Of a DNA stretch of 64,000 nucleotides, positions 1,631-38,599 are shown in pieces. The notes beneath the pieces were generated by a model, which had not been told where the DNA came from, did not search any database, and saw only the letters and a list, made by a program, of their open reading frames with translations. The stretch lies in the NCBI GenBank assembly GCA_963833425.1, contig CAWHXP010000009.1, positions 64,001-128,000 on the forward strand, read 5' to 3'. Both the position numbers and the translations under genes were made by a program. Each line of letters starts with the position of its first letter. The first letter of the stretch is position 1. The stretch is from an uncultured Methanosarcinaceae archaeon. Its GTDB lineage: Archaea > Halobacteriota > Methanosarcinia > Methanosarcinales > Methanosarcinaceae.

Positions 1631-2317
1631 AGACCTCGCTGCCGTGAAGTAGAACCCATTCTTTTAGATTTAAATGATCTGTCTGCGAGCGGTTGAAACA
1701 GTTTTCGATCGCAATACCAACTTGATCAATTATTTCATCGAGGATGTACTTCTTACGAAAGTCAAACCCACAGATTTTTTCCTCCTATTTATCGCATTAG
1801 GATATGGACAGAGGATCCATCTCTAAGGTCAATTTCACATCCATGTTCTTCGACGCAGTATGACCTTCAATAGCGACAGCCTAGTTTTAGGAACACGATA
1901 CTGAGCGCAAAAGTTATCCCAGCTCCATTTGTTCATGATCTGGACTCTCAAAAGAATATTTCATATCTGTTGCGCTTGTGGCCTGTGCGGTCTAATAGGA
2001 GTTTTAGGACTAGCTTTACATAAGAAAAGTTGAATAATAAAGCTTATTAATTTGTTAGTATTCACGAATAAACTGGGCAGCGATGAATTTTGGTATTCGT
2101 GCACAGGCATAAGTATATGCCAAGATGGATCCGATATGTGTAAAAAAGCCTCTGACTTATAAAAGATTTATTTAACTTACTGCGTCTAGTCAAAACAGGA
2201 TATTAAGATTGAATAAGCAAAAAATATTTCCATCAACAAATACCGAGCATATAGCAAGTAGTCAATTTATTAGTCACGCAGAAGAAGCCATAAAATATAT
2301 TGAGAGGCTGTAAAAAA

Positions 2318-2896
2318 ATGAAAAACCCATGGATTAAAATTAGATCTAATTTAATATTCGAAGATAAGTGGATTAAAGTATATCATGATGATGTGATTGG
2401 TTCTAACAAGAAAAAGGGGAGTTATAGTTATGTAAAAACTAAATGTGGTGTGGGAATAGTTGCCGTCAATAGTAAAGGAGAATTGTGTTTGGTGGGTCAA
2501 TATCGATATGCACCTGATATATATTCTCTAGAGATTCCGAAGGGTGGCTTCCATTCATTTAATTCTGATGAAAGCTCGTTACAAGCCGCTAAACGGGAAT
2601 TAAAAGAGGAAACTGGAATAAGTGCAGGGAACTGGGTTGAGCTGGGGGCAGTTCATACTCTAACTGGACATTCAAATGATATTGTTTACTTATTTCTTGC
2701 CACAGACCTTTCTTTTGGGATAAGCTTTCCTGATGAAAATGAATGTATAAATGTTTTTTACATAAAGTTCGACAAAATTGACACTGTAATAAGGGAGGGA
2801 TTATTTATTGATGGTAAAAAAGAGATGATAACTGATGCTACTAGTATTTCTGCAATTTATTTTGCAAAAGATTTAATTAAAGTTCAGACAATGTAA
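2318..2896 (+). CDS. Nudix hydrolase (ADP-ribose pyrophosphatase-like)
   Basis: QYRY...LEIPKGG...ESSLQAAKRELKEETG Nudix box. ATG at 2318 preferred over TTG at 2300. Confidence 0.85.
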   Translation: MKNPWIKIRSNLIFEDKWIKVYHDDVIGSNKKKGSYSYVKTKCGVGIVAVNSKGELCLVGQYRYAPDIYSLEIPKGGFHSFNSDESSLQAAKRELKEETGISAGNWVELGAVHTLTGHSNDIVYLFLATDLSFGISFPDENECINVFYIKFDKIDTVIREGLFIDGKKEMITDATSISAIYFAKDLIKVQTM

Positions 2897-2966
2897 AATA
2901 AAAAACATCTAAAGATAAATTTAAAAAGTTAAGCATAAGACCCATAATTTTATCCTTGATTTAATT

Positions 2967-4247
2967 TTATCTTGCAACTTGGCTTTGAGATTGTAACAGT
3001 TTATTTTTGGAGATAAATATTTTTTCAACGTAATTATACCATCTTTTGACATCATTTTCTGTAAAATTCTTATGACGCAAAGCAAAACAAGTTGATCTGT
3101 TCTTGCCGATCTGCACATACTTTGTAAAATCAGGCTCAATTATTTGATAGCCGAATTTCTCAGGATATTTTGCAATCTTAGTTCCTGGGTAGGGGATTAA
3201 AGGATATATTGAGAACTCATCAAAGGGCAAGTCACTTGCTTTTTCGAAGTATTCGACAATTGTTTGGTCTGTATCATATGGTAGTCCAACAATAAAAAAT
3301 GCTCTAATAGTTATGTCTTGTTCCTTAGCATTGCGAAGGTTCTTTTCCTCAAAACCATGCTGGGATGTTTTTCCAAGCATTTTGAGATTATCGGGATTTA
3401 AACTTTCTATTCCAACCGAGACATGCCTGCAACCACTTTTTGCAAGCATGTAACAGTTACTCTCACTTAAATCTTCTATTCTCGCAAAAATTCTGTAACT
3501 TATGTTCAGTTTTTTAATTTCTAATAATAATGTGTGAAGTTGAGGATTACCTGTAAAGTTATCATCGTTAAATCGGAATTTTGAAAATCCTCTTGACTTG
3601 AGATACGCGATTTCTTCGATAATTTTTTCAGTACTTCTATATCTTACACCTTTCATCACAATACTGTTACAGTGAGTACAATTGTATCTACAGCCACGAG
3701 AACTTATTACAGAAACAACCCTTTGATTATCAAGTACTCTACTGTAAGCGTTTAGATCAACAAGGTCCCAGGCAGGCATAGGGTAGCTGTCAATATCTGG
3801 CCTACCTTTTCCATTGACAATTTGGGGGAACTCAGAACCCTTTGAATACAAATTGACTACATTCAAGAAAGCATCTTCCCCTTCTCCAATGATTACACAG
3901 TCACAATTGCTATCCTTTAAGGTAAACTCTGGTAATCCAGACGGATTGGGACCTCCAAGAATGACTAAAGGGCTTCTATTATTAACAGACTTTATATGTT
4001 CTATACAACGTTTAACAAATGGGTAGTTTGTGCAATAGACTGTAAATCCATACGCATCGCCAGAAGGAATTGCTTTAATTTTTTCTTTTATCTCATCTTC
4101 TGTTTTGCAACCGGTCATTTCGTAAATCTCAACTTCAAAACCATTAAGTTTCAATACGGATGCAATATAAAGTAAACCTAACTGTGGCTCTAAATGATCG
4201 TCATAAACACAATTAGAAGGAGGATTTATCAAAACAATTTTAATCAT
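2967..4247 (-). CDS. Cobalamin-binding radical SAM enzyme (class B methyltransferase-like)
   Basis: N-terminal B12-binding domain (PQLGLLYIAS, ILGGPNPS, IGEGE), SRGCRYNCTHC CxxxCxxC motif, and DDNF, GIES, IVGLP, PYPGT motifs. Confidence 0.9.
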   Translation of the reverse strand: MIKIVLINPPSNCVYDDHLEPQLGLLYIASVLKLNGFEVEIYEMTGCKTEDEIKEKIKAIPSGDAYGFTVYCTNYPFVKRCIEHIKSVNNRSPLVILGGPNPSGLPEFTLKDSNCDCVIIGEGEDAFLNVVNLYSKGSEFPQIVNGKGRPDIDSYPMPAWDLVDLNAYSRVLDNQRVVSVISSRGCRYNCTHCNSIVMKGVRYRSTEKIIEEIAYLKSRGFSKFRFNDDNFTGNPQLHTLLLEIKKLNISYRIFARIEDLSESNCYMLAKSGCRHVSVGIESLNPDNLKMLGKTSQHGFEEKNLRNAKEQDITIRAFFIVGLPYDTDQTIVEYFEKASDLPFDEFSIYPLIPYPGTKIAKYPEKFGYQIIEPDFTKYVQIGKNRSTCFALRHKNFTENDVKRWYNYVEKIFISKNKLLQSQSQVAR

Positions 4248-8169: not shown

Positions 8170-9057
8170 GTGGATAGCAAACCTTCAAACAAGGATGACG
8201 TTAGAGAAAAAGAGACATATAAAAAAATTTACACCCCATGGGATTTTTATATTTTATTTGGGATAGCAGGAGTAATACTTTTTGTGATAGGAGCTTTTCG
8301 TTTCTCCACTTCGAATGATAATGCTTATTTCATTTATATTTGCTTAATCTCATTTGCAATTGTTGCCTTTCCGTGGGTTAGCTCGATTCAATTGACCGGT
8401 ATTTTCAAGATAGATAATGCAATAAACAAAGTGAGAAAAGAAACCCATGATCAAGTTGATCAAGCAAGCAAATTATTTGATAACAAATTATTATCACTCA
8501 GAACAGAGTTAGTATCTCAACTTACCAACATCCAATATCAAGCTCTTCAGCAAAAGACTGAACAAGTAGTACATGTTGATCTTGGTGCTTCTGCTCTTGC
8601 GGCCGTTAAAAGTACTGAGGATATGAAGTTAGAGTCCAATGAGGGTAAATCGCAATTGAGCATCCCACCTCCCAATGAGCTCCCAAAGAAATATTCTGAA
8701 TTAAGAATTGGATTTGCTAAAGCGACTTCTGTCGCATTGAATGATCCATATGGATATAGATGTGGATCACTTATTCGCCAGATTCCGGATAATGGGCAAT
8801 TGGCTAAGGAGTTCGAAGCGGCAAAAGCTGAGAAGAATGTCACAGATGAACAGGTTTTATCAATGAAAACCTTGGGTCTTGTAACCGATAAAGGGAGCAA
8901 TTCTACAAAGCCTAACGAAAATAAAATATACGCATCTGAATTGGGGAGAATATACGTGGACTATTGGAAGGGGTTTGCTAAAAATATCGATTGGGCTAAG
9001 CTTGGAGTTGACCTTCTCAGCAATATATCAAATTTATTTTTATATAGGAGTCATTAA
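8170..9057 (+). CDS. Hypothetical membrane protein (two N-terminal TM helices, coiled coil, possible C-terminal winged helix)
   Basis: 295-aa ORF with GAGG upstream of GTG and hydrophobic segments at ~aa 26-45 and 52-72. Confidence 0.7.
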   Translation: MDSKPSNKDDVREKETYKKIYTPWDFYILFGIAGVILFVIGAFRFSTSNDNAYFIYICLISFAIVAFPWVSSIQLTGIFKIDNAINKVRKETHDQVDQASKLFDNKLLSLRTELVSQLTNIQYQALQQKTEQVVHVDLGASALAAVKSTEDMKLESNEGKSQLSIPPPNELPKKYSELRIGFAKATSVALNDPYGYRCGSLIRQIPDNGQLAKEFEAAKAEKNVTDEQVLSMKTLGLVTDKGSNSTKPNENKIYASELGRIYVDYWKGFAKNIDWAKLGVDLLSNISNLFLYRSH

Positions 9058-9468
9058 TCTAATAGCAACATTTAATCTTTTCATTATTCATTTATTTTAG
9101 TAAAACCTGTGTATAATATCCCAAATTTAGATGAAAATGCCCTTATAAATCTCGAAGACACTTATCGTGTTATACAATCAAAATCATGGGGAATTGAATT
9201 GGTTAAAAAAATGACTTAACCTGAGCTCACTAGGAAGACTTTTATCAAGAGTCCCTGAGGAATATGATTATCTTTGTGAAAAAAAATGGCTCACAGCGCC
9301 TGTGAATGGCTCATATTTGATTTGATTTGACGCATATACATCCCGCTTGCATACAGAACAAAAATAACTTAATATTAAATACAAGCTTAGCTAATATTAA
9401 TCATAAAAAATAAAAAACTGTGTTCACAATGGCACGTCCATCATTATATTATAAGGGGTGATTTTAAT

Positions 9469-9615
9469 ATGGCAGAGGAAAACGATCAAAGTGAACAGGA
9501 AGAACTTAATAAGGATTCTCTGGAATCATTGCTTAAAGAAAAGCAAAGAAAACAGGTTCGTTCAGATTATCGGCGTAGTCTGGGCAGCGAAGCTGGTAGA
9601 AGATATAACGAATAA
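9469..9615 (+). CDS. Small 48-aa protein MAEENDQSEQEELNKDSLESLLKEKQRKQVRSDYRRSLGSEAGRRYNE (not in ORF track)
   Basis: GGGGTGA RBS upstream of the ATG, TTATATTATA TATA-like element just upstream, and protein-like composition. Confidence 0.55.
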   Translation: MAEENDQSEQEELNKDSLESLLKEKQRKQVRSDYRRSLGSEAGRRYNE

Positions 9616-10170
9616 GTTAATAAAAAAACATTAAAGTATAAGATTTAATACATTATGCAGAACAGATCGATAAGCTTTCAAAAATAAGTTAGATACCGTT
9701 GGTGTGTTCAACATCAACAGTACTCCTCTACCCAATTCATGATGAACTTTGATTTCCATAATAGTCAATTTTCACAACACTCATACCCATGTACCAAGTT
9801 CTATCATATTGCAATTGAGCATTCTTTGGATGTGCGTTTAATAGATTTACTATTTTTTTGTCTCAATGTCCCTACCTTTTACAATTTCTATATCCTGATA
9901 GACCAACGAATTATTAAATATCGTTGAACTATACTCATACTTAAGCCGATTAGAAATCAAATTCTAATCACTTGGATTTGTAGTTATCTTTTGATCATCT
10001 ATTAAATATATATCGGACTGCAACTAAATATTCATAACTCACTGGAGCTACTTTTGGCAATTAATTGTTACTCGTTCATCAACTCCTACACCCGCTCCAA
10101 TGTCAAAGCAAAAAAGATCCAAACAACGTTAAGAAATAGTATTTACTTAGAACTATCAACAATATTTTTA

Positions 10171-10243
10171 TAGTCCTGAGCGGATTCGAACCGCTGTCCC
10201 GGGCTCCAAAGGCCCGAAGGATTGACCACTACCCTACAGGACT
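10171..10243 (-). tRNA. tRNA-Gln(TTG)
   Basis: Reverse complement AGTCCTGTAGGGTAGTGGTCAATCCTTCGGGCCTTTGGAGCCCGGGACAGCGGTTCGAATCCGCTCAGGACTA folds as a cloverleaf with anticodon arm CGGGC-CT-TTG-GA-GCCCG. Confidence 0.95.
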
Positions 10244-10973
10244 GCATATTAAAGCTTTTACATATAAGATTAATCCTTGTACTTAATTTTTGTGCCATAT
10301 GGAATCTTTAAGACATTATGGCTAATGGTAAATCTCATCTATAGACTATTCCATCTTCGAACCTTTTACTGTGAAAATATATTTTGATGTAAAACTAATT
10401 TTTGTATAATTAATTTAACGTAATTTCGTGACCATTAAATAGCTTATAAGTGACTATAAAATTTCCCCCGGAATGAGAAATCACACACTTCAGCAAATAG
10501 ATAGAAGCTTCCCTATATGATAGTAGCTGAGGCATTTACAATTATTTATGATATCGAACTTGGTAAGCTCTATATGTCTCGTTTTAATCAAAAAAGGGGA
10601 AACCCTTGAAGGAAATAGTTGGTACAAAGTATATCGGAAATTAGGCAAAAGTCAGATGACAATCTACAATGGCTTGAATAGGAAGTTCTTACTACTTATA
10701 TAACTACTTTGTGGGTGACTACATAATTTTTTTCTCGGAACGTTGATTATCTAGATAAAGTGTTGAATCTTGAGCTTTTTTAATATTTTCTGGGATTGTT
10801 AAAATTTACCCCTTACCAAACTCTCAATTAGCTTAAATAAATAAAAAATGTAGAAAAAAAATCAAAATCTTTAAATCTAAATACAGAAATGAAAATAGGT
10901 AAAATTCGCTATAATTTAGATAAAAAATTTTATTCTCTGAATCAAAGTAAAAAACCGAAAAATTTTATATTTA

Positions 10974-11155
10974 TCTCCATAAGAAAAAAGGGTTTAAATT
11001 AAATTACCAATATTTTTGGAATTCGGATTCATGATTTTTTAGATGAACATATCTCAAGATGGGGATTATTTAATGATTATTTAGATCAAAGGTTCTCTCC
11101 AATGGAAACAGACGGGTCATTACCATAACTATTAATACGGTGTACTTCCATTGGA
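10974..11155. promoter_or_regulatory. ORB-like elements in a candidate oriC upstream of cdc6
   Basis: TCCAATGGAAACAGACGGGT (11098-11117) resembles the archaeal ORB (TTCCAGTGGAAAC...GGGG). Its 10-bp core is exactly inverted at 11146-11155, and a weaker copy lies at 10974-10993, all within a 1.9-kb AT-rich intergenic region. Confidence 0.55.
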
Positions 11156-12177
11156 TCTACTGCAATTACAGATTAAAATTGTTAGCTGATATATAAGTTT
11201 CATCTAAAAATTTGATAAAAGAAATCTGCAATATAGGTTTTATCAAGACTTGGTAGCACTTTAAGTGTGTGACTTGTGAGTCATTTTATCAGCGGTTTAA
11301 TGGAGACAAGAACTTAAAATATTAATTTAAAACAATAAATACAATTTATCTTAGCTATCACAATTATGTCAACCATATATATTCTTATCTTATAATATAA
11401 GAACCTTGAGTAATCACCTGTAGCAAATTAACATTTGAAAGTCGTGCAGAAAACACTATTGTATTAATCTGGTAGGATTTTCAGTAAACCCTAAATTTTG
11501 TCATATGTTTATGAATGATAAATACTTGAGATTGTCAAAGGATTTGACTTTCATTGTATAAAAATATTTGAGCTAAAAGCTATGTAAAGAAATACATTCA
11601 ATAGCTCTGAATTCGATGCAGCCTGAAGGAATTTTTACCCGGCTTTAGAGAACAAGTAAAGTTTAAAGATATTTATTTAAAGATTATTTTGTAAGAAATT
11701 TAATTTTCAAAAATTCAGTAAATTTGAAATTAAAATTTGTAGGTTTATCCTGCAGCTACGAGTCTGGAAAATATGATCGGTACCTTTCAAAATAAAGAAT
11801 ATATTAATTTAATATATTCATAGTAGTTGTATCTCGACCTAAACATATGAAGATTACATCTCTCCCATAAACAAGGAGTTTTAAACAAGAATTTCAACTA
11901 TTAAAACTTATGATGGCAATTATTTATTTAAAGTTCAATATAATATAATTTACATCAAACATTCTGCAGATACGCACATATGTATAAATTTGTTTGTATA
12001 TCCATATTATTATTCATTGAAAATTAGATTAATTTTTAAGATACTGTCATATTGAAAAAATGAATGGCATTCTTATGTACATCTGCAGAAAATGGATTCA
12101 TTATGAATATTAAATTTAAATCGACTGTCTTAATTCATTAGGTCACTTATTTCATCAACATTTATAGAGGGTCGTTC

Positions 12178-13422
12178 ATGATAAAAACTCAATCTTTAGA
12201 TGGCTTATTCGAAAAATTACTTGATGGGAAATCAATTTTCAAAAACAAAGAAGTTCTCCGGCCTTCTTACACGCCAGACCTTTTATTACACCGAAATGAA
12301 CAGATTAATAGCCTCGCAACAATATTGGTTTCTGCACTAAGGGGCGAAACACCTTCTAATGTACTGATCTATGGAAAAACAGGTACAGGGAAGACAGCTG
12401 TGACTCGCTATGTGGGAAAGGAGCTGGAGAGGGTAAGTGAAGATAAGTCACTTTTTTGCTCTGTAGTGTATATCAATTGCGAAGTTATTGATACACAGTA
12501 TCGACTTCTTGCAAATCTTGCTAGACAGTTCGAAGAAGAAGTTCCTATGACTGGATGGCCGACTGATCAGGTCTTCACGAAGTTTAAGGAAGCAATTGAT
12601 TCCAGAGAGCAGGTCGTTATCATAATTTTGGATGAAATCGATAAGTTGATCAAAAAAGGCGATGATGTCCTCTATAACCTTTCCAGAATTAATACAGATT
12701 TGCAGAAAGCCAAGGTGAGTATGATTGGGGTTTCAAACGATCTAAAGTTCACTGAGTTTCTGGATCCAAGGGTCAAAAGTTCCCTCGGTGAGGAGGAATT
12801 AATTTTTCCTCCTTATGATGCTGAACAGATTAGTGACATCTTGAAGCAAAGAGCAAAAATGGCTTACAATGATGGAGTACTGGGTGAAATGGTAATTCCA
12901 CTATGTGCTGCTTTTGCAGCCCAGGAGCACGGTGATGCTCGTCGTGCACTTGACCTCCTACGTGTGTCAGGGGAAATTGCAGAAAGAGAAGATCAGCCTA
13001 AGGTTCTTGAAGAGCATGTCAGACGTGCTCAGGAAAAGATTGAAATCGATCGTGTAGTTGAAGTCGTAAGGACTCTTCCCACGCAGTCTAAACTCGTGCT
13101 ATATAGTATTATCTTGCTACGGAATCGAGGCAGAGAAGGTAAAAATATTACAACAGGAGAAATGTATAATGTCTACCGCCAGCTCTGTCATCACATTGAC
13201 GTAGATATCCTTACACAACGCAGAGTTACTGACCTGATGTCTGAACTTGACATGCTGGGAATTGTCAACGCAGTGGTCGTAAGCAAAGGTCGTTACGGTC
13301 GGACAAAAGAGATTTCTCTCAGCGTTCCCATAGAAAACACCCGCAAAGTGCTTCTTGAGGATTACAGGCTCAAGCTCCTGGTAGATTTTAAGGCATCAAT
13401 TTTTAACAAAATGTTTTCTTGA
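12178..13422 (+). CDS. cdc6: Orc1/Cdc6 replication initiator
   Basis: YGKTGTGKT Walker A, LDEID Walker B, GDARRALDLL sensor, and winged helix with SKGRYGRT. Confidence 0.97.
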   Translation: MIKTQSLDGLFEKLLDGKSIFKNKEVLRPSYTPDLLLHRNEQINSLATILVSALRGETPSNVLIYGKTGTGKTAVTRYVGKELERVSEDKSLFCSVVYINCEVIDTQYRLLANLARQFEEEVPMTGWPTDQVFTKFKEAIDSREQVVIIILDEIDKLIKKGDDVLYNLSRINTDLQKAKVSMIGVSNDLKFTEFLDPRVKSSLGEEELIFPPYDAEQISDILKQRAKMAYNDGVLGEMVIPLCAAFAAQEHGDARRALDLLRVSGEIAEREDQPKVLEEHVRRAQEKIEIDRVVEVVRTLPTQSKLVLYSIILLRNRGREGKNITTGEMYNVYRQLCHHIDVDILTQRRVTDLMSELDMLGIVNAVVVSKGRYGRTKEISLSVPIENTRKVLLEDYRLKLLVDFKASIFNKMFS

Positions 13423-15377
13423 GGATTGGAATCTTCAATTATATCGGCTCTGTTGTTTTTTGTCGTTTCCTGTTATTTCATTTATTGTCTTACTTTTCAT
13501 TACCCTATGTGTCCAATTTTGGGTAAGCCCTATTTTTTTAACTCCTGATGGCTCCTGATTTATTAGGTTTTTCCCCAATAGTCTACGAAAAAACTTTGCC
13601 TACATCTCTCAATTTTATTTTTTATAAATTTCTCTAGAAAATTCAAGGTTGTCTAGTTATGAAGAGAACTTGTGCATAGTCGCCACTAAACTAAGTTGTG
13701 GTTTTTTTATTGTATTTTGGAATTTATGCGTCTATTAAGAGACTAGAAAAGCTAAATTACCTCCAACATTAAATTTTATGAATAGCCTAGGAATGCTTTT
13801 ACTGAAAACTGGCATTTTAAAGTTATATCCTTGACTTATTATTCTGTGTCATAATCCATCTTCACTAAATGCATACTATTTTGATAATTTTATTATCCTT
13901 TTTGATTCCAGTTGATGGCCAGAAGCTTGACGGGATGAAAACTTTCTATATAACCTTTATTAAATGACTAATTTCTATTTTAAGTCCTTTCTGTGCTTAA
14001 AAGTAGAATGAATAATGCAAATCATTGTGTCTATGAAATAAGATATCAAATGGTTCTTGATATTTTGTATCATAAAAAATTTCTTCTAAAATAATTACAT
14101 AATCAACTATTTGAAATTTATATGCTTTGAAATTGACAATATATATTGTTTTGAGTCGAATTAAATTTCTACTGATGTTGATCATCCAAGTCTTTTCTTT
14201 TACGCTGAACTAAAATATTCTCTTCCAAGAGTATGCAGATCATGAAAGGTAGCATAGTATAAAAAATATTTAAATAGCGCTCTAGATTAAAAAAATCATG
14301 GAATGGTGAACTGGGTATGATAGATGTTGCATTGAACTACTGATGATAGTACAACTCCCGATGTATTAAAAACGATGTTGAAAATCAGGGAAATCAGGAA
14401 GAAAATGAAGCATATGAGAAATGAAAACATTTTATTTTGATTCTTTCTTTTATATACAGAGCTGTGGCACGAAAATACTCATTTGCTTGCGACGGGGTGA
14501 TACACCAAAACTTTGATTTAGGTGTAAAGATTTGCTCTCGAAACTACTATCTCCATGGGATTAATGGTAAATTTCGGCGATCCAAGAAGATATTAAAAAG
14601 TTTCACAATTTGAATTGCGTGTGTGGCTATTCTTAAGAAATCCAGTACTAATAGAACCTCAAAAAAGAGCTTAAGGTTCATCTTTAATCGAATAAAAATT
14701 GAATATTTTTTATAAGAGCTGTAATAACGATAATTATATATTTTATCCATTAAAAGTACATATGTAAATATTTTGTGATATGCGGTTAATTTTCAGCGTA
14801 AATATCAAATAAATTTGTCTAGACATCTCTTTTGGTTGTGTAGAAATTTGTTTATTTATGAATGCAAATAATTTTTAATTAAGCTTGTAGCCTCGAGTTT
14901 TTAGATTTGAATTTAACCTTATAAAATCAACTTAGAAGAGATATCGTAAATTAAAATTTAAAGTTGCTACCCGCAGGCAACTGCATAAGTTCGATCTACT
15001 TTTATATATATTTTTAATCGATTTCTTCAATGTTAATTTTAGGAGATTGTTGAATGACTTTGAATTTTATCATATCAAGATAACTCTTAGTTCAAAAAAT
15101 CAAGAGATAGAAGGTCTATCTAAATTTTCTCTTCTATTAGTTTATCGCTTTTTATCTTTTCTTTATTCTATGCAGTCTACAATCAGGGTTACATTTTAAA
15201 TTTATGTTCCTATAAAACTTACGCAGTTAAACGTGGAAATCAATAGAATAAACCACTAACAGTCTAACATAAATTTCAAATAGATATGTATAATGTGCCA
15301 TAGTTCGATGCTTCTAGTGGTAAATAATATTTCTGACAAATCTATTACACTGAATTCTCTCAAGTTTTCTTGTGGCT

Positions 15378-15455
15378 TTAGTAACCCCAATGGCTGACAA
15401 AGACTTTGTTTAGATCATTAATATTTTTAAAGTTCCAAGAATCAATCCTATCCAT
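15378..15455 (-). CDS. Diverged array peptide, 25 aa, MDRIDSWNFKNINDLNKVFVSHWGY
   Basis: GAGGGAATTTAA-ATG start context and TAA stop at positions homologous to those of the 28-aa copies. Confidence 0.45.
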   Translation of the reverse strand: MDRIDSWNFKNINDLNKVFVSHWGY

Positions 15456-15549
15456 TTAAATTCCCTCTTTTTTAATGCATCTATTTCTATCTTTTTTTTT
15501 ATACTTCAGCCGTCTACAATCAGGATTACTTTCTGAATTTATGTTTCTG

Positions 15550-15667
15550 TAGGACTTACGCAGTTAAACTTGTGAATCGATAGCATTAAACTTTCAATAA
15601 TCTAAAATATAATTCAAATTACAATGTATATTTGTACTTCAATTTATACTTTAGTGCATAAGTCCTA
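15550..15667. mobile_element. ~118-bp MITE inserted in an array spacer
   Basis: TIRs TAGGACTTACGCA / TGCATAAGTCCTA, flanked by TTTCTG direct repeats (15544-15549, 15668-15673). The empty site ATGTTTCTGGTAAA is seen in a younger unit. Confidence 0.75.
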
Positions 15668-15715
15668 TTTCTGGTAAATCCCCTAAATAGATTTCTCTCA
15701 ATGGCTTTTGTGGGT

Positions 15716-15802
15716 TTAGCAGCACGTGCTCTGAATGACTCTGGCTCTTGTCATATCAAGCTTCGTTTTAAGGCTCTGAAAATTAAAACCTAAATAAGTC
15801 AT
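15716..15802 (-). CDS. Array peptide copy, 28 aa, MTYLGFNFQSLKTKLDMTRARVIQSTCC (TAA stop)
   Basis: AAGGGGG RBS before the ATG; differs from the other copies only at silent sites. Confidence 0.55.
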   Translation of the reverse strand: MTYLGFNFQSLKTKLDMTRARVIQSTCC

Positions 15803-15933
15803 TTAAATTTCCCCCTTCTTGTATTTCCGTTCCTCTGTTCCTTATGTTTCAGAAGTCTACAATCTGTGTTAAGCTTTGAATTTGTTTTTCTTGCACATCT
15901 TTGACGCCGACTTCTCTAGTTGCTTTTGTGTCT

Positions 15934-16020
15934 CTAACAGCACGTACTCTGAATGACTCTGGCTCTTGTCATATCAAGCTTCGTTTTAAGGCTCTGAAAA
16001 TTAAAACCTAAATAAGTCAT
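15934..16020 (-). CDS. Array peptide copy, 28 aa, identical sequence (TAG stop)
   Basis: AAGGGGG RBS and intact ORF. Confidence 0.55.
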   Translation of the reverse strand: MTYLGFNFQSLKTKLDMTRARVIQSTCC

Positions 16021-16150
16021 TTAAATTTCCCCCTTCTTATATTTCCGTTCCTCTTTTCCTTATGTTTCAGAAGTCTACAATCAGTGTTAAGCCTTGAACT
16101 TATGTTTCTGGTAAATTTTGACAACGACTTCTCTAGTTGCTTTTGTGTCT

Positions 16151-16237
16151 CTAACAGCACGTACTCTGAATGACTCTGGCTCTTGTCATATCAAGCTTTG
16201 TTTTAAGGCTCTGAAAATTAAAACCTAAATAAGTCAT
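16151..16237 (-). CDS. Array peptide copy, 28 aa, identical sequence (TAG stop)
   Basis: AAGGGGGACATAA-ATG and intact ORF. Confidence 0.55.
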   Translation of the reverse strand: MTYLGFNFQSLKTKLDMTRARVIQSTCC

Positions 16238-16366
16238 TTATGTCCCCCTTCTTGTATTTCTGTTCCTCTTTTCCTTATGTTTCAGAAGTCTACAATCAGT
16301 GTTAAGCCTTGAACTTATGTTTCGGGTAAATCTTTGACATCGACTTCTCTAGTTGCTTTTGTGTCT

Positions 16367-16453
16367 CTAACAGCACGTACTCTGAATGACTCTGGCTCTT
16401 GTCATATCAAGCTTTGTTTTAAGGCTCTGAAAATTAAAACCTAAATAAGTCAT
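16367..16453 (-). CDS. Array peptide copy, 28 aa, identical sequence (TAG stop)
   Basis: AAGGGGGGAAATAA-ATG and intact ORF; the repeat ends just upstream of this RBS. Confidence 0.55.
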   Translation of the reverse strand: MTYLGFNFQSLKTKLDMTRARVIQSTCC

Positions 16454-17339
16454 TTATTTCCCCCCTTTTTAGGTTGTAGCTTATGTAAATTTTAGATTCT
16501 AATTGCTCAACTGAATTTTGACTATTAGTAATGAGATTAAAACTTGAATCTAAATGCTAGATTGTTTGCTAAACTATTGATTCATGTTTATTGTGAAGGT
16601 AAATCTCCTCCGCACAACATGTTTTTTTGTGCTTATTTATGTTCCTTCCTTATTTATGCCCCTTAAATACTCTTTTTTGTGTACCTTCTGTTGAAATGCA
16701 CTCCTAAAGTCTTCAAGAAATGTTTGCAAATAATGCTTCTTGTAATACCCCCATTGAGTTATATCACTCAGGCATTTTTTTTCTAAAATATTTGGCATTC
16801 TTTCTTTATTTTAACCCATAAAAGTCTAATTTTTGCTTGCCAGTGAGTATATCTAACTATATATATTAAATTATATAAAGTCTATAGAATTAGTTTTTCT
16901 TACAAATAGTAGTTTTTGAGAATTTTATAGAAACTCTTACAATCTAGAATATCTATTTCTGAAGTGTTTCTTTTTTAGTTCCTTAATCAATATTATAATT
17001 CCTATTTATATAATGTTAAAGAATAATGGTTTATTTAGATTGAATATCGGATGATATTACATACTAGCTTTATTTATTATTATCATTTTTGACTAATTTA
17101 AGTGTAGACTTATTAACTGTTTAATAAGTTCAATTTCCTTTTTTTTCTGAGATGATTTTAATTATATTTAACAAAATTTTATAAGTTTTTTTAGTTTATT
17201 TCTTTTTTTGGATTAAATATTTCCCGAAGATTGTTTAATATATCGAAGTGAATATCAGCCGTAGTTATAATATCATAAAAATCTCCTGGATTATTTAGAT
17301 TTTTAAATGACCAATTAAATTAAGGAAGAATTTTGACGC

Positions 17340-17600
17340 ATACTAAGAAAAGTATCGCAGCAAGATAAATGTTTAAAGAATGTCCTGAAGTCAAAAAAGC
17401 TTCGGTGTGGTGAACTTTGGGGTGATGAAGCTATGTTAAAATATCTGTGATCGTGCAACCTTCGATGCCATTAAAATTATTTTGAGAATCAGGTAGGAAA
17501 AGGATCATAGAGATAAATTAAAAATTTAATTGTCAATAAATTACTAATATCCAGTTCAGCAGTGTAAACATGGCCAGTTGCTTGCAGTTGGGGTATGCCA
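17340..17600 (+). pseudogene. tnpA: IS200/IS605 tnpA 3' remnant
   Basis: Broken reading KSIAAR.MFKECPEVKK...GELW...IK...ENQ, typical of a Y1 transposase C-terminus; degenerate end hairpin at ~17570-17600. Confidence 0.6.
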
Positions 17601-17932
17601 CTTAAATTTTGATTTTTACCCTACCTTCCTTTGAGTCTCTTTTCGCGATGCATACAAGGATGCCGTCGATTTTCTCAATATAACCGCAGATTAAAAATCA
17701 ATCTAATTCCATGGATAATAGTGGGCAGATAGGCAAACAAACTTGAACTTATTTTTAGATGGTCTTCTAATTTTCAGAACACGTTTCAGAACCGACAAAA
17801 TTTCAAATTACTTAAACCAAAGAAAGTTTTAAATATATCTAAGAGAAATTCTCAATCTGATATCATTATCAAATTCTTGGTAGTCCAAACTAAGAAGTAT
17901 GACAAGATAACGCAAGTATGCTACATTGTATG

Positions 17933-18022
17933 AGAGGATTTCGATAAATCTCTGATTTTCACGAGTTATTTATATATGATTTTATTCCCATAACGACGTT
18001 TAGGAACTTATCGAAATCTTCT
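17933..18022. mobile_element. 90-bp MITE with IS5-type TIRs
   Basis: AGAGGATTTCGATAA ... TTATCGAAATCTTCT; homologous (inverted) to 58581-58670, with ends resembling the IS at 48747-49869. Confidence 0.75.
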
Positions 18023-18607
18023 ATAATTTCGTTCTTAATTCAAAACTGATGGATCACATAGTAATAAAATTCATTCAGGAAGAACCATCCGATCCCAAAA
18101 ACAATTGACTCGGATATATTTCGCTTTTATAAATAAAAAAACATTTCATGGAACTACTCATAAATGAGCTTCAAATCTCAAATAAAATGACTAATATAAG
18201 CAATATTAAGTAACGCTGAATCAAAAAATATTAGAGCAATTAAGCTCGATAGATTTAATCCAATAGATAAAACTTTGTGATTATTCTATCCTCATTAAAA
18301 CCAAAAACAAGCTAATAAGATGTTTTTCAGGGTAATTTCAGCTGGAGATTTTCATTATTTCTCTATCAATTCGAACTTGGATAAATAATATAAAAAATAA
18401 TATTTAATACTACTTTTCTAAAAACTCGTAAACAATGGAAAGACACCACAAATTATCTAAGTCAGCTGATGAAATACTAAAATCAATATTTTAATCAAAA
18501 ATGAAAAATTGCATGATATTTTGGACAGTATCATTATATATAGTTAGTAATAGTTGCAAGATATTTTAGCTCAATTTGTGTCATGGAGCTCTGGAAGGAT
18601 TTTAAAT

Positions 18608-19654
18608 ATGTTTACTTCAAAGAGAACGAAAACTAATCTCAGACCTTTATTGCGGAAGATAATTCACAAAAAGCATAAGGTAGCATACAAAATTGCAGCT
18701 GTGCTCTTGTTTATCTTATATATCTTGACCTTTGAGTATCTCATGCTTCTTGAGAACCATCCTGAAAATGCAAACATTATCACTGCTATCTATTGGGCTA
18801 CAACTACTATTACAACTGTAGGATATGGCGATGTGGTCTTCACTTCCCAGGGAGGAAGACTTTTTTCCACAATTATGCAGATTGTTGGGGTCATTTTAAT
18901 TTCGAGTTTTCTTATTACTTATGTAATAACTCCTTGGATGGACAATACTGTCAAATTTAGGCTGCCAAGAAAAGTCTCTTCCGAAATGAAAGATCATATA
19001 ATTATCTGCGGATATAATCAGATGGTTGAGACTTTGATCGATGAATTAGCTGAGCAGAACTTACTGTTTGTAATAGTTGATGACGAAGAAGAATTAATAA
19101 GGGAACTTTATTATAAGAGTATTCCCTGCATTTTTGGAGTCCTGAGCGATAAGCAGACACTTATAAATGCTAGTATCGAGAAAGCTGTAATTCTTATTGC
19201 AAACAAGTCTGACGAAAAAAATGCAAATATCGTCCTAACTGCCCGAGAATTTGAGAATCTTTACATCATTGCTATTGTTGAAGATATTTCAAACTCAAAA
19301 TACCTTAAGTATGCAGGCGCAGATACGGTTGTATCTCCCAAATCAATGTTCGGTCAATTTATCGGGAAAAAGGCGATGGACAGACTCGTAAATCGAGTTA
19401 CAGGAGCAACTGAAATTTTTGAAGGAGTACATATAGTTGAGTTCCCTATCTATCTGAAAAGCCCTCTTATAGGCAAGAGAATTAAGGAAGTTTCCAACCA
19501 ACAGCATTTGGCAGGTGCCAAAATTGTGGGAATATGGAAAAGTGGTACTCTTTCATTTGAGCCGGAAGCTGAAGATTTAATCCGAGAAAACTCAGTTTTA
19601 TTGGCTGTAGGAACTCCTGAGGGGCTTTCAAAACTGAAGAAATTGACACATTGA
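18608..19654 (+). CDS. Potassium channel with RCK/TrkA-N and TrkA-C domains (MthK-like)
   Basis: TTVGYGD selectivity filter, two TM helices, HIIICGY Rossmann motif, AGADTVVSP. Confidence 0.92.
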   Translation: MFTSKRTKTNLRPLLRKIIHKKHKVAYKIAAVLLFILYILTFEYLMLLENHPENANIITAIYWATTTITTVGYGDVVFTSQGGRLFSTIMQIVGVILISSFLITYVITPWMDNTVKFRLPRKVSSEMKDHIIICGYNQMVETLIDELAEQNLLFVIVDDEEELIRELYYKSIPCIFGVLSDKQTLINASIEKAVILIANKSDEKNANIVLTAREFENLYIIAIVEDISNSKYLKYAGADTVVSPKSMFGQFIGKKAMDRLVNRVTGATEIFEGVHIVEFPIYLKSPLIGKRIKEVSNQQHLAGAKIVGIWKSGTLSFEPEAEDLIRENSVLLAVGTPEGLSKLKKLTH

Positions 19655-23295: not shown

Positions 23296-24966
23296 ATGGA
23301 AAAATTGGCGAAATTTAAGGCATTGGGGCTTTCAGACAGCACATTGAAAGCTCTCAAAAAGAAAGGGTTTGAAGAACCAACTCCAATTCAGGAAAAGGTT
23401 ATCCCGCTTTTTTTGAAAGGAAATTGCGATATTATAGGGCAGGCACAGACAGGAACAGGGAAAACAACTGCTTTTGGAGCCCCCATTATCGAAAAAATCC
23501 CTGAAAAATCAGGGAAAATACAGGCTATAATCCTGACGCCAACCCGAGAATTGGCAATTCAAGTTTCAGAGGAACTAAACTCCCTCAAAGGAGATAAAAA
23601 ACTGCATATCATCCCTATATATGGTGGACAATCCATGACCCAACAACTTCGCGCATTGAAAAGTGGAGTGGACATTGTTGTCGGAACACCTGGAAGAGTC
23701 ATTGATCATCTTGAACGAAAGAGCTTAAACCTCAAAGATATTGCATATTTCGTACTGGATGAAGCCGATGAAATGCTAAACATGGGCTTTATTGATGCTA
23801 TAAAGGATATTTTGAATTCGACTGGTCCTGAAAAAAGAATGCTTTTCTTTTCAGCTACAATGCCAAAAGCAATTCTTGGGATCGTCAAAAAATACATGCA
23901 AAACTATGAGCACGTTGCCATTGAGGAGGAACTTGTCACTGACCTGACCGAACAGATCTACTTCGAAGTTCAGGAAAACGATAAACTTGAGGCACTCTGC
24001 AGGATTATTGACATTGAAGATGAATTTTACGGCCTTATATTTTGCAGGACAAAAATTGATACAGGTCAGCTTGCTCAAAATTTAGGAGACAGGGGTTATT
24101 TAGTCGATGCCCTACATGGTGATCTATCACAACAGGAGCGGGAGAAAATCCTGAACAAATTTAGGAAACAGAAGATAAATATCTTGGTCGCAACTGATGT
24201 TGCAGCGAGAGGCATCGATATCATAGAGCTAACCCATGTTATCAACTATTCTTTGCCCCAAGATCCTGATTCCTACGTGCACAGGATAGGAAGGACAGGA
24301 AGGGCAGGTAAGCAGGGAACTGCTATTACATTTGTTACATCCACGGAATACAGGCGGCTAACCTACATTAAAAAGACCTCAAAGTCCGATATGAAGAAAG
24401 GGAGATTGCCTGAAATAAGAGATGTTATTAAAGCTAAACGGGCAAGAGTGAAGGCTGAACTTGAATCTACCATAAAAGCAGAAGAATACATTGATTGCCT
24501 TGAAATGAGTGAAAAACTCCTCGATGAATATCCGGCAGAGAAAATCCTGGCCGCAGTCCTTAAGTACGCTTTCAAGGAAAAGTTCGATGAAAGCATGTAT
24601 GCAGAGATCTCCGGCAGTTCATATGTCGATAGAAAGGGTAAAACCAGGCTATTTATTGCTATGGGGAAAGTCGACGGCATGAATCCGGATAAGTTAAGAG
24701 AGTTCATACAGGAAGAGACAGGAGATAACGAACTGAAAATAAAGGATGCAGAGATTTTTCCAAATTTTTCTTTTGTAACAGTACCTTTTGCTCAGGCTGA
24801 AACGTTACTTGAAATATTCAAAAACAAAAAGAGAGGAAGGAAACCCTTTGTGGAACTTGCCCAGAAATCAAAGGGAAAAGGCTCAAAGAATATGAATAAT
24901 TCTGGCAGCGTGAATAATTCGAATGACACAAGACACACGAAAAATACGAAAAAAAAGGTTTATTAG
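23296..24966 (+). CDS. deaD: DEAD-box RNA helicase with DbpA-type RNA-binding domain (DeaD/CsdA-like)
   Basis: Q motif, AQTGTGKT, PTRELA, DEAD, SAT and HRIGRTGRAG motifs. Confidence 0.93.
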   Translation: MEKLAKFKALGLSDSTLKALKKKGFEEPTPIQEKVIPLFLKGNCDIIGQAQTGTGKTTAFGAPIIEKIPEKSGKIQAIILTPTRELAIQVSEELNSLKGDKKLHIIPIYGGQSMTQQLRALKSGVDIVVGTPGRVIDHLERKSLNLKDIAYFVLDEADEMLNMGFIDAIKDILNSTGPEKRMLFFSATMPKAILGIVKKYMQNYEHVAIEEELVTDLTEQIYFEVQENDKLEALCRIIDIEDEFYGLIFCRTKIDTGQLAQNLGDRGYLVDALHGDLSQQEREKILNKFRKQKINILVATDVAARGIDIIELTHVINYSLPQDPDSYVHRIGRTGRAGKQGTAITFVTSTEYRRLTYIKKTSKSDMKKGRLPEIRDVIKAKRARVKAELESTIKAEEYIDCLEMSEKLLDEYPAEKILAAVLKYAFKEKFDESMYAEISGSSYVDRKGKTRLFIAMGKVDGMNPDKLREFIQEETGDNELKIKDAEIFPNFSFVTVPFAQAETLLEIFKNKKRGRKPFVELAQKSKGKGSKNMNNSGSVNNSNDTRHTKNTKKKVY

Positions 24967-38156: not shown

Positions 38157-38599
38157 TTTCAACATTTTGCCACCGTTCTTCCCGTTTGAGCAATTCCTCG
38201 GATTGTGATTTTCAGTAACCTCCCCCACACTTATTTTTTTTTGCTCGAATATACTCATTTTTGTTCGAGATACATATGTTCAAATCTCAACGATCAATGA
38301 GTATAAAGATATATAGTCCTATTATATATAAAGCAAATAGAATATAGTGTACTTAATAGAAATCGCTTGACATAATTGTTAAAAGATATATATCAAACAG
38401 AATATATGTTTATAAGAATGTTTTCAAAATTGTTAAGTGGCTAAAAATAATAAAATTTTAATTACATTGAAATAATTTTTTTGTTAATAGTGATGATCTT
38501 CCTCAGATTTCCGACAAATTTGCTCATTTTTTGTTTATTGATATACATATATCAAAATATGAAATCTTGATTTCAATTTTTTTTGTGCTTGTTACAATA

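Follow-up and report, generated by a model that had tools for sequence, protein, structure and literature searches.

Next to a cdc6 gene in the genome of an uncultured Methanosarcinaceae archaeon (NCBI assembly GCA_963833425.1, contig CAWHXP010000009.1), an apparently non-coding repeat of 216-218 bp carries on its minus strand a series of small open reading frames (ORFs) preceded by ribosome binding sites. Are these ORFs genuine small-protein genes, and if so, what kind of genetic system do they form? A reading made from the sequence alone (the sequence-only reading) had suggested amplified small-peptide genes under purifying selection. We analyzed the array within a stretch of 64,000 nucleotides (positions 64,001 to 128,000 of the contig, hereafter the window, whose own numbering is used throughout) as well as its counterparts in related genomes, metagenomes and public RNA data. 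The array of this peat methanogen very probably consists of real, expressed coding genes arranged head to tail, which belong to a family with a shared promoter and leader. This family is large, apparently undescribed and found in almost all Methanosarcina.

Organization of the array

The repeat is real (window 15704-16464, period 218, 3.5 copies, 94% matches in Tandem Repeats Finder) and confined to a single locus in its own genome (4.07 Mb, 21 contigs, 80% complete). Four ATG-initiated ORFs of 28 codons are listed on its minus strand, spanning 16367-16453 (unit 1), 16151-16237 (unit 2), 15934-16020 (unit 3) and 15716-15802 (unit 4), and all of them translate to the identical peptide MTYLGFNFQSLKTKLDMTRARVIQSTCC. 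The Shine-Dalgarno (SD) sequence GGGGG(G) stands 6-9 nt 5' of the ATG in each, with unit 1 carrying GGGGGG 7 nt upstream and ending in TAG, and unit 4 ending in TAA ahead of a diverged spacer. According to the alignment, the four ORFs differ only at ACA/ACG, AGT/AGC, TGT/TGC and TAG/TAA, all of which are silent or stop-to-stop changes, while substitutions are more common in the spacers, which also contain 1-bp indels. Unit 5 (15378-15455, minus strand) is a diverged copy encoding the 25-residue peptide MDRIDSWNFKNINDLNKVFVSHWGY, and unit 6 (~15040-15120, minus strand) is a broken copy that reads KSYLDMIKFKVIQ, lacks an ATG and is frameshifted relative to its orthologue. The sequence-only reading had described the four identical ORFs with their silent differences, the diverged fifth unit and the broken sixth, and the ORF list, translation and alignment bear it out. 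Its placement of the array start at the first ribosome binding site did not hold, as a promoter, a leader and a decayed cistron lie upstream (16538-16926). The shared promoter-leader, the genus-wide family and the decayed cistron 5' of unit 1 were not part of that reading.

Coding evidence and selection

Since tandem copies evolve in concert, four silent differences are weak evidence by themselves, and orthologues were therefore sought. Among 40 relatives, a DNA search detected the array only in genome G019, where it is split across two contig ends, and when the 58 other genomes of the genus were searched with the peptide, G064, which has five copies, was found as well. Matches obtained by tblastn in G065, G074 and G044 were taken as chance (E 0.17-0.7, one with three stops). 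A pattern scan of metagenome contigs contributed nine more loci with 1-5 units each, and the genome collection supplied two further Methanosarcina/Methanosarcinaceae records of metagenome-assembled genomes. The final set comprised 33 units from 12 sources, 28 of them distinct.

Frame and stop after 27 or 28 codons were present in all 33 units, and an ATG in 32 of them, the remaining one having ATA. Within codons 1-25 of the 28 distinct units, 18 columns varied, comprising 14 third, two second and two first positions; one of the first-position changes was a synonymous TTA/CTA exchange. The search pattern fixes 21 of the 75 ORF columns, and these were left out of the tests. Third positions make up 20 of the remaining 54 pattern-free columns, for which the third-position excess gave a binomial P of 5e-4. 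Counted as codon states, 16 synonymous changes were found versus six non-synonymous ones, four of the latter at residues 10 and 14. Frame 0 alone was free of stops, and the other five frames each contained 26-85 stops summed over the sequences. In pairwise comparison with unit 1 of the window, the proportion of non-synonymous differences (pN) was 0.017-0.033 and that of synonymous differences (pS) 0.07-0.35, with an omega of ~0.09; the pS range matches the p-distance of the spacers (0.21-0.26). The window units are protein-coding genes under purifying selection. A peptide search and a comparison of substitution rates across relatives had been named as checks by the sequence-only reading, and both speak for its central claim: orthologues exist, pN lies far below pS, variation is biased by codon position, and the frame is kept in all 33 units.

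At residue 10 (window 16424-16426 in unit 1) the codons AGC, TGC, TGT, AAC and GGC were observed, encoding S, C, N or G, so that this single hypervariable codon accounts for most of the amino acid variation in a stretch of 25 residues that is otherwise frozen; the residue may be a specificity or modification site. The last two to three residues vary (TCC in the window, TD or CD in sister lineages), residues 1-25 being near-invariant. Because this tail is free to change, conservation does not extend to the C-terminal CC, and the earlier suggestions of a metal-binding CC peptide and of an S/T/C-rich core are weakened.

The other units follow patterns of their own. Unit 5 has kept ATG, frame and stop in seven of seven orthologues, an in-frame 6-nt indel included, and its protein sequence is weakly constrained and changes freely among them; an allele with the 6-nt insertion at 15444 was present in all four sequencing runs examined below. 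The KSYLDMIKFKVIQ reading of unit 6 resembles KKTFEMVKFKIIQ in the peptide of a related species, and it is closer to the G059/G061 subfamily than the peptide of units 1-4 is. Decay likewise takes the course expected of genes. At 16538-16612 on the minus strand, 5' of unit 1, lies what is left of an SD-led ORF of 26 codons (MFTFKINMNQLFKTAAAHDLALKFHF in relatives). This cistron 0 is intact at eight related loci and forms a 26-codon cistron (MFTFKINMNQLF..) within the leader in G019 and G064. In a window-like metagenome strain (L030) it has acquired a nonsense codon (TTG to TAG), and the window shares this in-frame TAG and has also lost the ATG. Start loss is seen a second time in the single unit copy with ATA. 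A 53-codon ORF at 16637-16798 (minus strand) was rejected as a gene for lack of conservation, since it is interrupted by a stop in G064 and its ATG is missing in G019.

A conserved promoter upstream of the array

The 528 nt located 5' of unit 1 share 83-84% identity with the corresponding sequence in G019 and G064, and their core matches 28 of the 58 other genomes of the genus, often several times each. We described the most conserved part by a sequence-only covariance model of 110 positions (R1), which covers the promoter and the first ~30 nt of the transcript and is located at 16820-16926 on the minus strand of the window (E=1.2e-24 for R1, E=2.1e-23 in nhmmer). It contains a perfect archaeal TATA box (TTTATATA, 16872-16879, minus strand, identified in the alignment), ~45 nt of conserved sequence upstream of this box, an upstream ACTAYTATTTGTAAG block, as well as a conserved transcript start (ATACTCACTGGCAA..AAAATTTAG). 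Judging by the distance to the TATA box, transcription probably starts near 16848-16852. Column identity in an alignment of 17 sequences (A3) was 78%.

R1 was found in 55 of the 58 other genus genomes with 1-16 copies each and ~374 matches in total, the exceptions being G002, G009 and G058. The copies are often clustered, 1.2-3 kb apart. In a sample of 121 genomes of the order, R1 was detected in seven of nine genomes of the genus, one of two of the sister genus and none of 20 other genera. The genome harboring the window contains one strong copy, which is the array locus itself (G000:C9:80820-80926, minus strand). A weak match on another contig of this genome (G000:C13:197907-197987, plus strand, E=2.2) is followed at +184 by an SD-led 28-codon ORF rich in Trp and Tyr (MFGWDDYQIINLWGAPARWGYIPWGSYA) and may represent a second, diverged locus. 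Within the window, a weak partial match was present at 38285-38356 on the minus strand (G000:C9:102285-102356, E=0.19), and no SD-led small ORF is listed downstream of it. At ~20 loci of one subgroup (L050-L058, L068-L080), CTCCAAAATTGTAGACCTTACC recurs at a fixed offset on the opposite strand, ~530 nt 5' of the element.

A structured leader

The transcript would begin with a structured leader (16738-16852, minus strand), the 5' arm of which, ACTCACTGGCA, pairs with TGCC..GAGT ~65 nt downstream to form a helix (P1) and is followed by the motif TGGGGGTATTA. RNAalifold returned no consensus for a first leader alignment (A2), in which the 3' arms were misaligned between subgroups, and for this reason single-sequence folds and a hand-set helix were used. 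Minimum-energy folds paired nucleotides 3-23 with nucleotides at or beyond position 55 in 43 of 50 distinct leaders. For the hand-set P1 helix of 16 pairs, 80.1% of the cells in an alignment of 24 sequences (A4) can pair, versus 25-46% for slid partners. Both sides change in 10 of the 16 pairs and none of 500 shuffles reached the observed values, although P1 was derived from the same sequences that were used to test it, which favors the helix. A search of window 13000-19000 against Rfam with E values up to 1 returned only a chance miRNA match and nothing for the array or the leader, and the leader DNA had no match in phage and plasmid collections.

A genus-wide family of micro-ORFs

The sequence behind R1 is populated by small ORFs on the sense strand. 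In 44.8 kb downstream of 45 distinct elements, SD-led ATG ORFs of 20-35 codons numbered 97 in sense and one in antisense orientation, and 36 of the 45 elements carry at least one such ORF within 1 kb. In the window, the five ORFs are positioned at +367, +583, +800, +1018 and +1365 from R1. Arrays range from one to ~18 cistrons and differ in their composition: two peptide types alternate in G061, where spacers are as short as ~55 nt, three copies of MLMGFDLSQFFTFSFLNNLNFIFQI are followed by six of MIFEMFYKNVKI(C/A)YESTVFSMFYCF in G047, and four copies of MGYFTLYYS.. are present in G048. The 81 distinct family peptides fall into ~34 clusters. Relative to the long ORFs of the window's genome, Cys (4.2x), Phe (3.3x), Met (2.4x), Tyr (2.2x) and Trp (2.2x) are over-represented in them and Pro, His, Glu, Gly, Asp and Ala are scarce, and many of the peptides end in C, CC or WC. 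The hydrophobic moment of the cluster representatives peaks at 160 degrees (z=4.4, for an angle picked after the scan), compared to z=1.8 at 100 degrees. Family peptides change rapidly between lineages and are under purifying selection within a lineage.

Window-type peptides have a grand average of hydropathy (GRAVY) of -0.02 to -0.21 and a net charge of +1 to +3 (+2 or +3 for that of the window itself). An amphipathic helix was considered for the window peptide and rejected (z=-0.5 at 100 degrees). It can be aligned to the G059/G061 subfamily without internal gaps at 20-32% identity, following the pattern ..F/Y.L..K.(F/L)(D/E/N)M..(A/F)(R/K)(V/I)(I/V)Q.

At L095 (G048, minus strand), L098, L103 and L104, the promoter-leader element is followed by longer ORFs in tandem (35-51 codons), whose products contain much Gly, Cys and Trp (MCCGFNYFGCGRGW...RRRWHRRCC, in three identical copies). 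The 51-residue Gly/Cys-rich form is included in a collection of 15 billion proteins, with NCBI entries named 'hypothetical protein' from two strains.

Transcription of the array

Twenty public sequencing runs contained part of the stretch, eight of them metatranscriptomes from peat, permafrost and soil. Three RNA runs from three studies (peat/permafrost) and one DNA run were compared over window 12800-15830, all as assembled contigs without strand information. Depth over the ORF of unit 4 was 88-142 in X3, 664-1080 in X5 and 1997-3845 in X6, with cdc6 depths of 0, 84.7 and 36-59, respectively. The DNA run (X1) had a depth of 7-8 over the same ORF and of 0-3.4 over cdc6, and was flat across the whole stretch (0 to 8.2). 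The rise over unit 4 in X5 and X6 was at least 13-fold, of which collapsed repeat copies account for perhaps 4-5-fold. Loose ends of the RNA contigs extend from the ORF into the leader sequence 5' of unit 1 as well as into the spacer of a G064-like strain, and one RNA contig of 925 nt covers units 6 and 5 and part of unit 4. The array units are transcribed and present at high depth in RNA libraries, in keeping with the sequence-only reading.

On the 3' side of unit 6, at 14946-14983 on the minus strand, a hairpin (AGTTGC..GCAACT) and the T-rich run behind it resemble a terminator. The stem of this hairpin is longer in G064 and G019. The depth of the RNA contigs falls below position ~14840, where the DNA run carries on. 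The RNA contigs would agree with a long transcript whose end is close to the hairpin, although the fall in depth is a weak hint and these unstranded data do not prove a single transcript. X3 and X5 had no RNA coverage at 13514-14329, and that stretch was not counted as evidence. Two nearby segments (14320-14440 and 14530-14640) are dispersed repeats with 69 blastn matches together in their own genome; in all four runs they coincide with peaks of RNA depth that have loose ends on both sides. The first of them overlaps a hydrophobic ORF of 44 codons at 14296-14430 (minus strand).

Spacers and genomic neighborhood

The spacer motif CTGATTGTAGAC occurs five times at up to one mismatch, always on the minus strand and within the array, versus 0.29 copies expected; none of 100 shuffles reached five. 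The copies, of the form C(T/A)GATTGTAGAC, are located at 15175-15186, 15512-15523, 15855-15866, 16073-16084 and 16288-16299. Each begins 62-68 nt ahead of the ATG of the following unit, and none precedes unit 1. No significant fold was detected in the spacers, with an alifold consensus of only -0.5 kcal/mol and single-fold z-scores of 0 to -1.8. The motif is clade-specific, because outside the clade ATTGTAGA precedes an SD sequence and ATG at only one of 43 sites in other species. The search for this motif, which the sequence-only reading had put forward, was successful within the array and not beyond the clade.

The nearest genes to the array are cdc6, the 3' end of which it faces, and a gene for a TrkA-type K+ channel. 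Flanking regions of 3.1 kb (9057-12178) and 5.1 kb (13422-18554) on the two sides of cdc6 (12178-13422, plus strand) contain no ORF of at least 100 codons and are likely a replication-origin neighborhood. Orthologues of this origin-type cdc6 are 97-98% identical across the genus. The one in G064 adjoins the array, while those in G013, G061 and G006 are far from every related locus. The earlier description of the array as lying downstream of cdc6 stands for the window and G064, and the adjacency is incidental.

Eight related loci follow two syntenic patterns, being located either after the genes for isoleucyl-tRNA synthetase and an MptE-like protein or flanked by a MacB-type ABC operon, which is divergent, on one side and by a DEAD-box helicase gene on the other. 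The neighbors at these loci encode isoleucyl-tRNA synthetase, the MptE-like protein, AAA_14/DUF4143, DEAD helicase and ABC transporter functions, and the sets look like synteny. At L097, L099 and L101 (G047, G048 and G061), the cluster is divergent from a four-gene operon encoding an ABC ATPase, a 413-residue CARDB-like protein, a MacB_PCD/FtsX permease and a second ABC ATPase, and convergent with a DEAD/DbpA RNA helicase gene. The arrangement may reflect a link to export or simply synteny. A DEAD/DbpA helicase gene is also present in the window, at 23296-24966.

Records in databases and literature

None of seven family peptides of 25-28 residues had an exact counterpart in a collection of 15 billion proteins, and 11 family peptides were without matches in Pfam and NCBIfam. 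A full-text literature search did not turn up any account of the family, its common promoter or the tandem arrays. One member has been recorded individually. The small ORF (sORF) sORF_271 of M. mazei Go1 (27 residues, MGFFSLYYSKVTVIYSKTTLSIFGWFF), listed as located 'on spRNA39', is marked 'yes' as translated in a curation of ribosome profiling (Ribo-seq) data (PMC11456600). According to the supplementary tables of the same paper, spRNA39 is an RNA of 222 nt with 15-23 reads per kilobase per million (rpkm), a translation efficiency (TE) of ~2.3 and no response to nitrogen. sORF_271 appears there only as a table row and goes unmentioned in the main text; the 314 unannotated M. mazei sORFs tabulated in that source contain no further family members, and its file 3 has no small RNA at the position of the leader (PMC11456600). 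Expression of spRNA39 rises late in infection by the virus MetSV (PMC9694453, section 3.2.5). The passages of these two papers that concern sORF_271 and spRNA39 are silent on a family, on a common promoter and on arrays in tandem (PMC11456600, PMC9694453). In our analysis, G013 encodes a peptide identical to sORF_271 on the same strand as R1 and 222 nt downstream of it, with a GGAGG site.

A proposed polycistronic set of small-protein genes

The explanation we favor is that the array is a polycistronic set of small-protein genes with a strong SD sequence at each cistron, belonging to a family in which one conserved promoter and a 5'-helix leader would drive 1 to ~18 tandem ORFs of 20-35 codons. 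Read along the minus strand, the proposed order is TATA promoter and leader, decayed cistron 0, four 28-codon cistrons, the 25-codon cistron, the dead copy and the terminator-like hairpin, presumably transcribed as one long polycistronic RNA. Bulk peptide output could be achieved by the combination of a strong regulated promoter, strong ribosome binding sites and gene amplification, and the 5'-terminal stem would be expected to protect and stabilize the mRNA. The peptides themselves would then be free, abundant effectors rather than enzymes.

Several points weigh against this explanation or limit its reach. The pattern used in collecting units still biases which ones turned up, even though the columns it fixes were excluded from the tests, and the units are linked by descent and concerted evolution, so that the counts are of non-independent events. 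The RNA contigs are unstranded, their depth is summed over strains and inflated 4-5 fold by collapsed repeats, and carry-over of DNA is possible. The coding case for the window peptide is built on sequence and RNA contigs. This peptide is also atypical of the family, with 11% F+W+Y compared to a family mean of 24% and no amphipathic periodicity, two C-terminal Cys residues being present. BLASTP found no alignment between it and the G059 peptide, and its tie to the other subfamilies therefore depends mainly on the shared upstream element; homology to these consists of shared context and the gapless alignment at 20-32% identity. P1 is weakest in the clade of the window, with 5-9 pairs in the minimum-energy fold; the leader of the window itself forms five, and a hand-drawn version of 9 bp with a 2-nt bulge is possible. 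Finally, the annotated 5' end of spRNA39 is at the SD sequence, 14 nt before the ATG (PMC11456600). Because this allows for processing or internal starts, the polycistronic model is unproven, and either of the two may exist besides one long transcript.

The functional role is our inference alone, and the confidence we place in coding genes with a shared promoter-leader does not extend to it. Tentatively, we suggest that the peptides respond to stress or viruses and either self-associate or attach to membranes or proteins, a possible role that we prefer because spRNA39 rises late in MetSV infection and the family has a beta-strand-like hydrophobic periodicity. In a wider and speculative picture, these loci, up to 16 of them with dozens of cistrons, would form a regulon specific to the genus, in which the promoter and an undescribed leader RNA switch on mass-produced, fast-evolving, beta-prone 25-mers rich in aromatic residues and Cys. 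These would be the archaeal counterpart of peptides that bacteria make in bulk, such as phenol-soluble modulins (PSMs), beta-hairpin defense peptides or abortive-infection toxins, and would serve virus defense, competition or cell-surface/aggregate biology. Sensing may be a function of the leader RNA itself.

Alternative explanations

Ribosomally synthesized and post-translationally modified peptides (RiPPs) had been proposed by the sequence-only reading. The units would then encode precursors, and enzymes from other parts of the genome would modify their conserved 25 residues or variable tail and perhaps export them. The tandem multi-copy small ORFs, the enrichment in Cys and aromatic residues, the many C, CC or WC ends, the divergent MacB-type ABC operon found beside one cluster type in three genomes and a gene for a B12-binding radical SAM protein 11 kb from the array in the window would all suit such a system. 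We nevertheless regard it as unlikely. As that reading had itself pointed out, no modifying enzyme is adjacent to the array, and neither a RiPP-type enzyme nor a common partner gene was found at the eight related loci (Pfam searches of the main flanking genes, 27 of 75 long ORFs). In addition, the loci are dispersed (1-16 per genome), the peptides have no Pfam or NCBIfam matches, and no clear division into leader and core is apparent, residues 1-25 being uniformly conserved ahead of two to three variable tail residues of which CC is not kept.

Type I toxin-antitoxin-like loci comparable to ldr/rdl and ibs/sib, in which antisense RNAs and a structured 5' untranslated region (UTR) restrain toxic peptides, were rated with similar doubt. 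Tandem, multi-copy and fast-evolving small ORFs behind a conserved structured 5' UTR agree with this idea, as do the hydrophobic nature of many family members (e.g. MIFGLDLGILFAIVFEFDLGLLFGW with a GRAVY of 1.8) and the late induction of spRNA39 during virus infection (PMC9694453). The window peptide, however, has a GRAVY of ~0 and a net charge of +2 or +3 and is thus unlike classical type I toxins, which counts against the toxin reading offered earlier from the sequence. Spacers of down to ~55 nt are too short to hold an antisense gene for every unit, the single antisense SD-led ORF compares with 97 in sense orientation, and the five spRNA/antisense RNA pairs listed for M. mazei in section 3.1 of a recent preprint do not include spRNA39 (bioRxiv 10.1101/2025.10.28.685009).

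Cis-acting leader peptides or upstream ORFs, for which the translation of aromatic-rich codons would matter and not the product, are improbable. The skew of the family towards Phe, Tyr, Trp, Cys and Met and the occurrence of short SD-led ORFs in long non-coding transcripts are in line with them. Yet no regulated gene follows the arrays: that of the window ends at a hairpin facing the 3' end of cdc6, and other family arrays end ahead of convergent or unrelated genes. The amino acid sequence is kept along the entire ORF and not in codon content alone, and the window peptide has only three aromatic residues. A non-coding repeat with an incidental ORF (origin iterons, Orc1/Cdc6 binding repeats or a repeated small RNA), to which the location in a 5.1-kb gene-poor stretch beside cdc6 and the five copies of the spacer motif might point, is largely refuted and very improbable in view of the third-position periodicity and a pN far below pS, which are unlike a DNA or RNA site, the missing adjacency to cdc6 in G013, G061 and G006 with promoter-leader-ORF loci far from cdc6, and the absence of an Rfam match.

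Significance and comparison with known systems

Small proteins of methanogens are an active field in which they have been catalogued singly, and here one promoter-leader links hundreds of unannotated micro-genes in nearly all of the Methanosarcina genomes searched. The family provides a search handle for such genes in the R1 model, as well as a likely common regulator site to look for. It has members in genetically tractable strains, in which deletion, overexpression, Ribo-seq and mass spectrometry are routine. In metatranscriptomes from peat and permafrost, the window-type peptide seems to be abundant, so that it may matter for the physiology of methanogens in the field. With intact, diverged, nonsense and start-less copies side by side, amplification and turnover of micro-genes can be traced within one genus.

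The closest known counterpart, spRNA39 with sORF_271, represents the same locus type, an unannotated small ORF of 27 codons behind the conserved promoter-leader. It differs from the array of the window in being a single cistron of another, Tyr/Phe-rich subfamily that is not located beside cdc6. The ldr/rdl and ibs/sib loci of Escherichia coli are tandem repeats of a few hundred bp that contain ORFs of 19-35 codons in multiple copies with structured 5' UTRs. Every unit of these loci comes with a promoter and an antisense RNA of its own, and its toxin is a hydrophobic peptide of the membrane. The arrays of Methanosarcina resemble them as tandem, multi-copy small-ORF repeats with a structured 5' UTR, and depart from them in having one upstream promoter, spacers of down to ~55 nt, a polar basic peptide in the window and no known antisense partner. 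The psm-alpha operon of Staphylococcus aureus consists of tandem ORFs of ~20-25 codons with their own ribosome binding sites that were missed by annotation, is very highly expressed and yields peptides that act in bulk, the PSMs being amphipathic alpha-helices. It is bacterial and without sequence relation to the Methanosarcina family, which has a beta-type periodicity (the window peptide has neither type) and no dedicated exporter linked to it. What the two systems have in common is the arrangement of tiny ORFs in tandem, each with a ribosome binding site of its own and each overlooked by annotation.

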